From the sequence record NC_054921.1: a stretch of DNA of 64,000 nucleotides; one strand, 5' to 3'. Positions within the stretch are counted from its first letter, which is position 1. Each line of letters begins with the position of its first letter. Below the pieces are notes generated by a model. The model made no database searches, was not told the origin of the DNA, and was given only the letters and a program-made list of their open reading frames with translations. This DNA comes from Escherichia phage vB_EcoM_IME537. Positions 13,278 to 44,670 of this stretch are shown piece by piece. Both the position numbers and the translations under genes were made by a program.

Positions 13278-13748
13278 TTAATCATGTTTCCACACCCCAT
13301 CGGTATTTGACCAAAGCCGCTGATTATCTGAACCTCGCCACAGCTTTTTGGTCGGAAGATTTTTCTCATACTTCCCATCAATAATAACATCAACATATTT
13401 AAGCATTTCTAGTTGTTTAATATCTTCAAACTTATATCCTGTCCACAACCAAATGCTTTTATTCGGATAAAGATTTTTTACCGTTTGAACAATGCAATGA
13501 ACATCATCTCGGTTATCAGGATAAAGAGGGTCTCCTCCAGTTATAGTTAATCCTTCTATATAATCATTATTCAAACATTCAATTAATTGTTCTAGTGTTT
13601 CACCAGTGAATGGAACGCCATTTCTAGCATTCCATGTTGATTTATTATAACACCCTTCACATTTATGCAAACACCCCGTAACGAAAAGAACGACCCTGCA
13701 TCCAGGGCCATTTACAAAATCGCAGGGATAAAATCTATCGTAATTCAT
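13278..13748 (-). CDS. nrdG: anaerobic ribonucleotide reductase activating protein NrdG (radical SAM)
   Basis: 156 aa; CxxxCxxC-type cluster (CLHKCEGC). Confidence 0.9.
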   Translation of the reverse strand: MNYDRFYPCDFVNGPGCRVVLFVTGCLHKCEGCYNKSTWNARNGVPFTGETLEQLIECLNNDYIEGLTITGGDPLYPDNRDDVHCIVQTVKNLYPNKSIWLWTGYKFEDIKQLEMLKYVDVIIDGKYEKNLPTKKLWRGSDNQRLWSNTDGVWKHD

Positions 13749-15024
13749 TGGTGTTTAACCCTATGCATGATTTCTTTATTTTTGCCGAGATTAAATCCGC
13801 GTTCATTCGGATTTCCCAAATAACCACAAGTTCTTCTTATTGTGTTCATCTTTTTAGGATCAGTTTCTCCACAAACAGAACAAACAAATCCGTTTTCAGT
13901 AGGAGTCATTTCATGGGTACTTCCGCATGTAAAACATTTATCTACTGGCATATTAACACCAAAATAATCTAAATGTTGTGCAGCATAATCCCATACAGCC
14001 TCAAGACCTTTTAGGTTATTTTTCATATCAGGAAGTTCAACATAAGAAATGTGACCACCTGTCGCAATGAAATGATATGGGGCTTCGCGAGAAATCTTTT
14101 CAAACGGAGTAATATTTTCTTCTACTGAAACGTGGAAACTGTTAGTGTACCAGCCTTTATCAGTAACATCCTTTACACTTCCATATTTTTCGGTATCAAG
14201 TTTACAGAAGCGATAGCACAGGTTTTCAGCAGGTGTAGAATACAAACTAAAAGCAAAACCGGTTCTTTCAGTCCACTGCTTAAGATGAGCATTCATTTTA
14301 GTTAAAATTTCTTGTCCAATATCACGACCGACAAGAATATTCAATTCGTGAATACCAATGTATCCTAAGGACACTGAACTTCTACCGTTTTTAAATAACT
14401 CAATTATATCGTCATCAGGTTTAAGACGAACCCCGAATGCGCCTTCTTGGTAAAGAATAGGAGCAACAGTAGCTTTAACTCCTTTTAAGGAACTAATTCT
14501 ACACATCAATGCTTCAAAACATAAATCCATTCGCTCATTGAACAATTCGGCAAATTTCTGTTCATTGAACTGTGTTCCAATATAAGAATCTAACGCAATG
14601 CGAGGAAGATTCAGTGTTACAACACCAAGATTATTACGTCCATCAAGAATTTCATTACCAGTCGAATCTTTCCATACACTCAAGAAACTACGACAACCCA
14701 TTGGAGAAACAGGAATAGATGAACCGGTGATAGCTTTATTGTTCTTAGCCGAAATGATGTCAGGATACATTCTTTTGCTTGCACACTCTAGAGCAAGCTG
14801 CTTAATATCATAGTTCGGATCGTCTTTATAAAGATTAACACCTTCTTCAACGAACATAACAAGTTTAGGGAAAATAGGAGTTATCCCATCACGACCGAGA
14901 CCTTTAATACGATTTTTCAGAATTGCTTTCTGAATCATTCGTTCAGTCCAGTCAGTTCCCGTGCCAAATGTAATTGTTACAAAAGGCGTTTGTCCATTAG
15001 AGCTGAAAAGTGTATTTACTTCAT
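13745..15024 (-). CDS. nrdD: anaerobic ribonucleoside-triphosphate reductase NrdD, exon 2
   Basis: open frame continues upstream of the track start; predicted 3' splice site after G at 15025; C-terminal glycyl-radical region. Confidence 0.8.
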
Positions 15025-16069
15025 CATTATATTCAGCATGAGTCGCAAATTCATGCCCGTTTATATGAAACAACAAAATTTGGATAGTCCATAGATATGC
15101 AACGTTCTTTTATAGTGCTAGGATGAAAATTTAGCGCTTTAGCTGCTTCTATATAAGACGTATACTTAATACCGTCAACAACCACATATTCAGGAACTTT
15201 ATGAATAGTAGTCTTAATACTCAAAACAAGAGGATGAGTTTCGACTTCACTTTCAGTGCAATTTAAATATTCCGCTGCTTTTTTAAAACTTCTAAAAGTT
15301 TTATTTTTAAGCTTTATCGATACTTGTTTTTTACTTTTTCGACTATTGATATTATTTTGCACATGTTCCTTAGATCTTCCGTTTTTAGCATAATATTCAG
15401 CTACAGAAGATTTTATATTGTTTTTATGAGATTCGGATAACACTTTACCCTTATGAGCATCTCTTAATTTTTGAATATGTTCTTCAGTATCCGGATGCTT
15501 ATAAAACTTTTTACCGCCTATGGATTTATTTAAACATTTTTTGCTATAAAAATATTTACGTATGACCTCTTCTTCATGTTTTAATGCATCTTTATAACTA
15601 TCAAATGTTTTTAAAATTATCCATTTAGTAGGTGTATCAGTTTTTAAGCGTTCATTTATATACTTAGATGACGTTGTGTAAGTTTTCCAGTTTGTGGGCT
15701 TGTTTTTAATTGTTCTAAATTTTTTATAACCGATATAAATGTCGCCATTAGAAAACTTAACTAAGTATGTAAATGCGTCTTTATCTTTTATTTTAGTACA
15801 ACGTCTTTTTATCCATTTCATTGTTTCACCTCGTATTCATAAGATAATCTTATTTATACAAGATGACTGCTGCATGTCGCCATGCAGATTAGACTATATC
15901 TTCATCTTTCGATGCCGGCCGTTTCGAATAGCATTAGCTTCTATTCTACACCGCTACATTCATCACGGTTAGTCGTTAGGCATTTAGTTCAAAAGAACAT
16001 TTAGCACGGGATTGTCTACTAGAGAGGTTCCCCGTTTAGACCGGTTTTACATGAGCCTGAATTAAATTA
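15025..16069 (-). mobile_element. group I self-splicing intron in nrdD carrying a homing endonuclease ORF
   Basis: splits nrdD; exon 1 ends in U, intron ends in G; contains I-TevII-like ORF. Confidence 0.8.
15051..15821 (-). CDS. I-TevII: intron-encoded GIY-YIG homing endonuclease (I-TevII-like)
   Basis: 256-aa ORF with its own SD GAGGTGA; N-terminal GIY-YIG-type motifs (DIYIGYKK). Confidence 0.8.
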   Translation of the reverse strand: MKWIKRRCTKIKDKDAFTYLVKFSNGDIYIGYKKFRTIKNKPTNWKTYTTSSKYINERLKTDTPTKWIILKTFDSYKDALKHEEEVIRKYFYSKKCLNKSIGGKKFYKHPDTEEHIQKLRDAHKGKVLSESHKNNIKSSVAEYYAKNGRSKEHVQNNINSRKSKKQVSIKLKNKTFRSFKKAAEYLNCTESEVETHPLVLSIKTTIHKVPEYVVVDGIKYTSYIEAAKALNFHPSTIKERCISMDYPNFVVSYKRA

Positions 16070-16607
16070 ACTCATAAGCTTGGAATGCATCGTATACGTC
16101 TTTTTCTGTTTTAGATTGGGCATAATTCAATGCATCAGCGATTTGCCATTTTTCTGCATCCTCAATATGTTTTGCATAGGTGCGTTTAACATAAGGAGAA
16201 AGTACTTTATCTACATTCGCAAAAGTCGTTCCGCCATATTGATGAGAAGCAACCTGCGCAGTAATTTGTGCCATAATTGCAGTAGCAACGCCAATTGATT
16301 TAGGAGTTTCAATCTGCGCATTACCAAGCTTAAATCCGTTCTCAAGCATTCCTTTTAAATCTACTAAACAACAATTAGTAAATGGAAGAGCAGGGGAATA
16401 ATCAATATCGTGGAAATGGATAATTCCGCTTTCATGCGCTTTCATAATAAAAGACGGGACCATATTTTTGGCAATGTGTTTAGACACAATACCAGCCATA
16501 AGGTCCCGTTGAGTTGGAAAAACACGAGAATCTTTATTAGCATTCTCGTTTAAAAGGTCTTTATTAGTTTTATGAATCAATCCTTCAATTTCTTTTTCAA
16601 TTGTCAT
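16070..16607 (-). CDS. nrdD: anaerobic ribonucleoside-triphosphate reductase NrdD, exon 1
   Basis: ATG 16607; joined with exon 2 gives 605 aa across junction AYE|YEVNTL. Confidence 0.8.
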
Positions 16608-43313: not shown

Positions 43314-43389
43314 TGGTCGAGGCAGTAGGGATCGAACCTACGACCTAGGACTTAGAAGGTCCTTGCTCTTCCTTCTGAGCTATGCCCCG
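43314..43389 (-). tRNA. tRNA-Arg: tRNA-Arg (anticodon UCU), CCA encoded
   Basis: hand-folded cloverleaf; T-arm GGTTCGATCC; anticodon loop CTTCTAA. Confidence 0.8.
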
Positions 43390-43392
43390 TAA

Positions 43393-44058
43393 TTAAAATT
43401 TCATTTTTCGACCTTTAAACCATCCTTCTGGAATTGGGTCAGTTTTCTTAATACGTTTAGAAACTTTTTCATCTAATGAATGAATCCACATCATACCAAA
43501 TTGGGAATTCTTTTCTCCTTTCTGGTGATTATTTTTAGCGTGAATTTCTTTCATTTTATTAATAGTTTCAGGAGTATGATGCTTATTTAAAAATCTGCTA
43601 TTATTTAAAAATTTTTCCTTGTATTCAGGAGTTGACCACAAACGTTTAAATACATTTGAACCAATTTTACGATATTTTTCTTGAAGTAAAATATCATTTT
43701 CAAAACGTGATTTAAACGATTTAGCTCCTTTTAAGCTAGCATCTTTCTTCTGGTTTAGCATCCCAGGAATATTTATATGGTCCCATCCACCTTCACCGCC
43801 AAGTTTTAAATTATACACATCTGGTCTATTTAAAAACTCTTCTGTGACAATATTTTTCTCGGCTTCAAGCATAGATTCTTTATCATCAAAATACTCTAAT
43901 ATTTCTTTAGAGAAATTTTCTATACCATACTTGTCTTGGGCTCTTTTTAATAATTTACCAGAACCCATATATCCATCATCTAAATTTTCGGTAGAATGCA
44001 CACCAATATAAATTTTATTATTAATTTTATTTGTTATTTTATAAGTGTAATGGAACAT
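43393..44058 (-). CDS. segB: GIY-YIG homing endonuclease SegB
   Basis: 221 aa; YTYKITNKINNKIYIG...GGEGG; embedded in the tRNA cluster as in T4. Confidence 0.85.
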   Translation of the reverse strand: MFHYTYKITNKINNKIYIGVHSTENLDDGYMGSGKLLKRAQDKYGIENFSKEILEYFDDKESMLEAEKNIVTEEFLNRPDVYNLKLGGEGGWDHINIPGMLNQKKDASLKGAKSFKSRFENDILLQEKYRKIGSNVFKRLWSTPEYKEKFLNNSRFLNKHHTPETINKMKEIHAKNNHQKGEKNSQFGMMWIHSLDEKVSKRIKKTDPIPEGWFKGRKMKF

Positions 44059-44099
44059 AAATATCTCCTATTTCTAAGAGTATTTATGTTCCCAAAATA

Positions 44100-44171
44100 T
44101 GGCCCTGGGTGGAATTGAACCACCATCTGGCGATTATGAGTCGCTTGCTTGAACCTTCCAGCTACAGGGCC
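44100..44171 (-). tRNA. tRNA-Ile: tRNA-Ile (anticodon CAU; lysidine-type assumed by T4 gene order)
   Basis: cloverleaf; T-arm GGTTCAATTCC; anticodon loop CTCATAA. Confidence 0.7.
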
Positions 44172-44177
44172 TTGATA

Positions 44178-44250
44178 TGCTGATTGACGGAATCGAACCG
44201 CCGACATCCTCATTACAAGTGAGGTGCTCTACCTACTGAGCTAAATCAGC
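44178..44250 (-). tRNA. tRNA-Thr: tRNA-Thr (anticodon UGU)
   Basis: cloverleaf; T-arm GGTTCGATTCC; anticodon loop CTTGTAA. Confidence 0.8.
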
Positions 44251-44257
44251 GAAATTA

Positions 44258-44344
44258 CGGAGGCGATAGGATTTGAACCTATGAGTCGCCGGAGCGACTG
44301 CCGGTTTTCAAGACCGGTGCATTAAACCACTCTGCCACGCCTCC
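44258..44344 (-). tRNA. tRNA-Ser: tRNA-Ser (anticodon UGA), long variable arm
   Basis: 87 nt; anticodon loop CTTGAAA; T-arm GGTTCAAATCC. Confidence 0.8.
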
Positions 44345-44346
44345 AG

Positions 44347-44420
44347 TCTCCGCGGCAGGATTTGAACCTGCGACATTCTGCTCCCAAAGCAGACGCTCTA
44401 CCAAACTGAGCTACACGGAG
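44347..44420 (-). tRNA. tRNA-Pro: tRNA-Pro (anticodon UGG)
   Basis: anticodon loop TTTGGGA; T-arm GGTTCAAATCC. Confidence 0.8.
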
Positions 44421-44432
44421 TAAATTAAATTT

Positions 44433-44504
<72 letters not shown>

Positions 44505-44509
44505 AAATT

Positions 44510-44596
44510 TGGTGCGAGAAGTGGGACTCGAACCCACAAGGAAATCATTCCGCAGCATTTTAAGTGCTGTGCCTTTACCAATTTGGCCATTCTCGC
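44510..44596 (-). tRNA. tRNA-Leu: tRNA-Leu (anticodon UAA), CCA encoded
   Basis: 87 nt with long variable arm; anticodon loop CTTAAAA; T-arm GGTTCGAGTCC. Confidence 0.8.
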
Positions 44597-44597
44597 G

Positions 44598-44670
44598 CTG
44601 GGAATAAAGGACTCGAACCTTTGCATCCTGGAATCAAAATCCAGTGCCTTACCAACTTGGCTAATTCCCA
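44598..44670 (-). tRNA. tRNA-Gln: tRNA-Gln (anticodon UUG)
   Basis: anticodon loop TTTTGAT; T-arm GGTTCGAGTCC. Confidence 0.8.

Follow-up and report, generated by a model that had tools for sequence, protein, structure and literature searches.

The nrdD (sunY) gene of phage T4 carries a group I intron of subgroup IA2 that is 1033 nt long and harbors the ORF of the homing endonuclease I-TevII (258 aa). This ORF is looped out between P9.1 and P9.2, and its Shine-Dalgarno sequence is paired within a hairpin that also contains the T4 late-promoter motif TATAAATA, a layout that restricts translation of the endonuclease to late transcripts (PMC2988022). A sequence upstream of the ORF that mimics the homing site has also been reported for I-TevII (PMC3984707, PMC2988022). 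Another T4 gene, td, contains an intron of the same subgroup, which in its full-length form has its ORF (I-TevI) in P6a and not after P9.

We analyzed a 64-kb stretch of the genome of Escherichia phage vB_EcoM_IME537, hereafter the window, in which nrdD is interrupted by an insertion 12 nt longer than the T4 nrdD intron (Table 1). The two elements share the insertion site (GAGU/...G/AUGAAG), the UAA at intron nt 6-8, the order of the helices, the looped-out position of the ORF between P9.1 and P9.2, the TATAAATA motif within the hairpin in which the Shine-Dalgarno sequence is paired, and the 3' end CUGAAYAYAWUG, which the td intron has as well. The original prediction described this as the known T4 sunY/nrdD arrangement, and the arrangement and the site are indeed those of T4. 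The element itself, however, is not the T4 intron: the two are 66-68% identical at the nucleotide level, and their endonucleases share 56% of their residues.

Table 1. Features of the interrupted nrdD gene and its intron; positions are those of the window, and intron nucleotides (nt) are numbered from the 5' splice site.
Feature	Position	Strand	Basis
nrdD exon 1, codons 1-179 and base 1 of codon 180	16070..16607	minus	Pfam NRDD profile positions 1-141, E = 1e-40
Group I intron (W-type nrdD intron), 1045 nt	15025..16069	minus	removal restores 605-aa NrdD; absent from intronless allele at exact boundaries
Ribozyme core, intron nt 1-200: P1 3' strand, P3, P4, P5, P6/P6a, P7, P7.1, P7.2, P8, P9	15870..16069	minus	RF00028; MFE fold; T4 helix comparison
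In-frame UAA, intron nt 6-8, ending exon 1 translation just 5' of the internal guide sequence	16062..16064	minus	ORF end at 16062; T4 UAA at same intron position
Internal guide sequence, P1 and P10 pairings	16050..16061	minus	P1 in MFE fold; P10 read from sequence
P4-P5-P6 segment, intron nt 30-71	15999..16040	minus	42/42 identical to T4 td intron; T4 nrdD intron 32/42
P9.1 hairpin, 10-bp outer stem, pairs with endonuclease Shine-Dalgarno	15827..15865	minus	fold and T4 comparison
TATAAATA, T4 late-promoter motif, in 5' arm of P9.1	15851..15858	minus	read from sequence; annotated late promoter in near-identical SA20RB record; same place in T4
Homing endonuclease ORF, 256 aa, GIY-YIG N-terminal domain and NUMOD1, I-TevII homologue	15051..15821	minus	Pfam; I-TevII homology; dN/dS
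P9.2 hairpin (GCAUGA...UCAUGC), contains ORF stop codon	15036..15056	minus	six standard pairs; four with both bases changed from T4 GUAGAG/CUCUAC; centroid fold of natural mini-intron
3' terminal segment CUGAAUAUAAUG ending in terminal G (15025), 3' splice site	15025..15035	minus	CUGAAYAYAWUG common to T4 nrdD and td introns
nrdD exon 2, remainder of codon 180 to stop, with glycyl-radical domain	13745..15024	minus	Pfam NRDD profile positions 145-562, E = 9e-123; Gly_radical

The reading frame of nrdD is split in the manner first proposed from the DNA. The exon 1 ORF (16607..16062, minus strand) ends in ...AYELI followed by a stop, and the exon 2 frame is open from 15076 to 13745 (minus strand) with neither an ATG nor a Shine-Dalgarno sequence. 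Joining the exons at the predicted positions, after the U at 16070 and after the G at 15025, gives 538 + 1280 = 1818 nt, that is, a single frame of 605 codons plus the stop, with the junction reading AYE/YEVNTL. The joined product was aligned to the crystal chain of T4 NrdD (PDB chain 1h78_A, 605 residues), a class III reductase, over residues 1-605 without a gap, the junction included; five residues distinguish the two proteins. The intronless allele of phage ECO07P2 reads GCTTATGAGT directly followed by ATGAAGTAAATAC, matching the predicted ligation product base for base; a shift of 1 nt at either boundary would not give the ECO07P2 sequence, so the boundaries are fixed to the base. The annotated nrdD join of T4 has the same insertion site in the same exon context. 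The splice junction that had been predicted is thus correct on both counts, the gapless protein alignment and the identity of the intronless allele. Downstream, the start of nrdG (13748..13278, minus strand) overlaps the nrdD stop in an ATGA (13745-13748).

If the insertion were not spliced, nrdD would be either a split gene encoding two polypeptides or a pseudogene. Public records do give two nrdD CDS without a join, and a functional split nrdA without an intron exists in phage Aeh1 (PMC3653736). However, at the junction exon 2 has neither a start codon nor a ribosome-binding site, the spliced junction of T4 and intronless alleles place the boundaries at exactly the same bases, and the insertion matches the group I model above threshold and keeps its helices through compensatory changes, as detailed below. 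We regard an unspliced insertion as very improbable. The gene is dispensable under aerobic laboratory growth, so selection would be slow to remove a copy that had lost splicing. An intein was also considered and rejected, as the insert has in-frame stops and an independent ORF.

The assignment of the insertion to the group I introns was upheld by a covariance model and by folding. In a local scan of 1.3 kb, RF00028 (the Rfam group I intron family) matched 16105..15870 with 72 bits (E = 5e-18; model positions 1-253, full model), 22 bits above the gathering score of 50 bits. In the same test, the experimentally proven T4 nrdD intron reached 105 bits, 33 more than the intron of the window. A gathering-threshold Rfam scan of the whole 64-kb window reported eight tRNAs only and missed the intron, which is lost to the speed filters at that search size. 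The eight tRNA genes form a cluster at 43317-44670 (minus strand), resembling the tRNA region of T4.

Thermodynamic folding of the first 248 intron nt together with 10 exon nt yielded an MFE structure with P1, P3, P4, P5, P6, P6a, P7.1, P7.2, P8, P9, and the P9.1 hairpin (z = -3.55), and none of 200 shuffled sequences folded as well. When the helices of the window and T4 introns were compared one by one, all were fully paired in both, the P3-P8 core including P7, and none was broken. In thirteen pairs both partners differ from T4 and pairing is kept (two in P3, two in P4, three in P6a, two in P7.1, and four in P9.2), a count taken between just two divergent lineages, to which no formal statistics apply. 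In P1, intron nt 13-20 pair with exon 1 positions -7 to -1 and intron U1, all eight pairs being standard, U(-1)•G14 included. A weakly supported P10 of only 4 bp is possible between UUCA (intron nt 9-12) and UGAA of exon 2 (+2 to +5). P9.2 was also predicted in the centroid fold of a natural mini-intron, described below. Several helices differ in detail from their T4 nrdD counterparts: P7.2 has 6 bp and a 9-nt loop against 5 bp in T4, P8 has 4 bp and a GAAA loop against 6 bp, both remaining perfect hairpins, and P9.1 is longer, with a 10-bp outer stem and an extra inner stem where T4 has an 8-bp hairpin.

The predicted 256-aa GIY-YIG ORF with its own Shine-Dalgarno sequence (GAGGT, six nt 5' of the ATG) is also present. 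Its Pfam match to PF19835 (SegE_GIY-YIG) is marginal (26.6 bits against a cut-off of 25), and NUMOD1 is matched with 25.3 bits against a cut-off of 22.8. Homology to I-TevII is full-length and takes in the DNA-binding C-terminal half: 256 of 258 aa align at 56% identity (E = 1e-101). The two proteins are collinear, occupy the same genomic position, and have the same N-terminal GIY-YIG and C-terminal NUMOD1-type regions, with the motifs FTYLV...IYIGY, HEEE, and LNKSIGG conserved between them, whereas 44% of their residues differ and the window protein is 2 aa shorter. A MAFFT alignment of the window ORF with I-TevI was poor in the region of the N-terminal motif. Between the window ORF and the I-TevII gene, dN/dS is 0.25 at a dS of ~1.5, and both ORFs have therefore been kept as proteins; this value compares the W-type with the T4-type lineage (defined below), as W-type copies are too nearly identical for an estimate of selection within the lineage.

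The layout that governs I-TevII expression in T4, hairpin and late promoter alike, is kept in the window despite a 9-nt insertion and an altered stem sequence. We also searched for a mimic of the homing site by 34-nt ungapped comparison; the best intron match was 17/34, not above that of shuffled introns, for W-type and T4-type alike. From the exact boundaries, the fold signature, the intact and conserved ORF, and the signs of horizontal spread among phages described below, we conclude, with a probability of roughly 0.93, that the insertion in nrdD of this phage is a mobile group I intron of the T4 sunY/nrdD type.

Among the phage records compared, nrdD introns at this site fall into two classes. 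The W-type, to which the window belongs, was found in 42 records from Tequatrovirus and Mosigvirus that are 99.6-100% identical to the window; the T4-type was found in 25 records, about half of them T4 itself, that are at least 99.2% identical to one another. A megablast count of 60 consisted of these 42 W-type records and 18 T4-type records bridged at lower identity. No intermediates between the two classes were found in the phage collection. A tblastn search with the endonuclease returned no full-length relatives outside them, and an exact-pattern scan of IMG/VR for the W-type 5' end gave no match.

It could be argued that the element is simply the T4 nrdD intron with I-TevII, already characterized, since gene, insertion site, ORF position, and regulatory layout are all as in T4. 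The sequences speak against this. Compared with T4, the window exons are 94.9-97.4% identical (79 differences in 1818 nt, dS 0.22; exon 1, 97.4%), far above the identity of the introns and endonucleases, and dS between the two types is 1.5 for the ORF against 0.22 for the exons. Within each class the copies are nearly uniform, and nothing lies between the classes. We give the proposal that this is T4's own intron next to no credence, and identity with the element found in T4, PST, and U5 was ruled out by the same sequence comparison (66-68% as against at least 99.2% among the known copies). Judged by sequence, the W-type is a discrete second lineage of the nrdD intron/I-TevII family, previously uncharacterized, although as a kind of element it is ordinary. 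Full-text searching of the literature turned up no account of a second lineage of nrdD introns; an earlier account may exist.

The mobility attributed to the element is borne out at the level of populations. In six W-type phages from two genera, the intron differs from that of the window at 1-2 of 1045 positions (99.8-99.9% identity), while exon 1 is 90.7-98.0% and exon 2 91.9-97.5% identical, and polymorphic tracts of differing length adjoin the intron in the exons. More than 15 genomes carry an intact ORF of 100% identical sequence. In other W-type copies it is frameshifted, and in two it has been deleted internally, leaving mini-introns of 345 nt (BYEP01, L004 801-1145) and 479 nt (215Ecol030PP, L005, ending at 1279) that still score 71-72 bits on the group I model. 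The endpoints of these deletions lie at short repeats, GACGTTG and AAAGAC. A near-identical intron in diverged exons, together with losses of the ORF, is the pattern expected if recent horizontal spread had been followed by decay of the endonuclease.

The ribozyme might instead be functional in an intron that now spreads passively or by means of another nuclease, for example through ordinary recombination or through trans-homing by free-standing mobC/segH-type endonucleases nearby, its own endonuclease being inactive or irrelevant. There is precedent in T4, where the defunct I-TevIII intron is trans-homed by mobE (PMC2790892). The W-type copies with deleted or frameshifted ORFs and the endonuclease gene found just downstream of nrdD in some W-type genomes would fit such a course; in T4 and SA20RB an endonuclease gene of the mobC or segH type separates nrdD from nrdG. 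The window, in contrast, has no endonuclease gene there, and the intact ORF, invariant across so many genomes, and its long-term dN/dS of 0.25 also argue against an irrelevant endonuclease. We consider spread without the intron's own endonuclease unlikely and retain the reading of a self-mobilizing intron.

We propose the following course of splicing, expression, and homing, the splicing steps being drawn from homology and structure. On the pre-mRNA, translation of exon 1 would end at the UAA at intron nt 6-8, and because both introns have the UAA at this position, ribosomes would leave before the guide sequence. The first 200 intron nt could then form the P1-P9 catalytic core, in which the internal guide sequence, by pairing with the final 7 nt of exon 1, would define the 5' splice site, after U(-1)•G14, for attack by an external guanosine. 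On the far side of the looped-out ORF, some 800 nt further downstream, P9.2, the terminal G (15025), and the short P10 would bring in exon 2, and the ligated exons would form the mRNA for the 605-aa NrdD. If the T4 arrangement holds here, the ribosome-binding site of the endonuclease ORF, which lies between P9.1 and P9.2, would be paired in P9.1 in the long transcript, and late transcripts from the TATAAATA promoter in the 5' arm of P9.1 would present it free. The endonuclease would be expected to cut the intronless nrdD of co-infecting phages near the exon junction, and repair from the intron-bearing allele would copy the intron with some of the flanking exon.

The core of the W-type intron appears to be a mosaic. 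Its P4-P6 segment is td-like and not sunY-like, forming a 42-nt exact block with the T4 td intron, while the longest exact run shared by the W-type and T4 nrdD introns is 19 nt. A second exact block of 17 nt, covering P6'-J6/7-P7, is also shared with the td intron, from which the window intron differs in P1, P2, P7.1, and the host gene. The two kinds of intron can reside in one genome: Salmonella phage GRNsp7 has both a W-type nrdD intron and a td intron with the identical 42-mer (L013 929-970). In its td gene (L013 886-1140) the intron is roughly 250 nt long, has no ORF, and carries the same P6a hairpin (CAGCAGTAGCTG) as the T4 nrdD intron, a further hint of segment exchange between td and nrdD intron cores. 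The 42-nt block suggests gene conversion between co-resident introns, and the simplest reading would be an exchange of core segments between td and nrdD introns sharing a genome. Similar core sequences occur elsewhere. Krischvirus phiS (PP449093, L012 268-381) has a different group I core, 83% identical to the P7-P9 region, directly upstream of an nrdD CDS that is truncated, probably representing an nrdD intron with a different insertion site, and a similar match lies beside an HNH endonuclease in Vibrio phages F93 and F95.

A broader scenario, which we put forward as tentative and somewhat less likely than its negation, is that the W-type is an old independent lineage, outnumbering the T4-type (42 versus 25), that is a chimera with a td-derived P4-P6, and that the endonucleases of the two lineages differ in recognition, so that the lineages compete for one site. 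Beside the T4 intron, the exon 2 flank departs from that of the W-type at +8, +11, +14, +15, and +17. If true, this would be a case in the wild of intron domain shuffling, with P4-P6 acquired through gene conversion from td.

In the W-type records examined (L002, L007-L011, and others), nrdD is given as two separate CDS that are never joined, sometimes with invented internal starts, and the endonuclease is often labeled "hypothetical protein" or, generically, "homing endonuclease". Once the intron is recognized, these annotations can be corrected to one 605-aa NrdD. The finding changes no concept; what it adds is a natural pair of endonucleases at one insertion site, I-TevII and a 56%-identical relative, along with intact, frameshifted, and ORF-deleted copies that offer material for the study of specificity drift, intron invasion and decay, and domain exchange.
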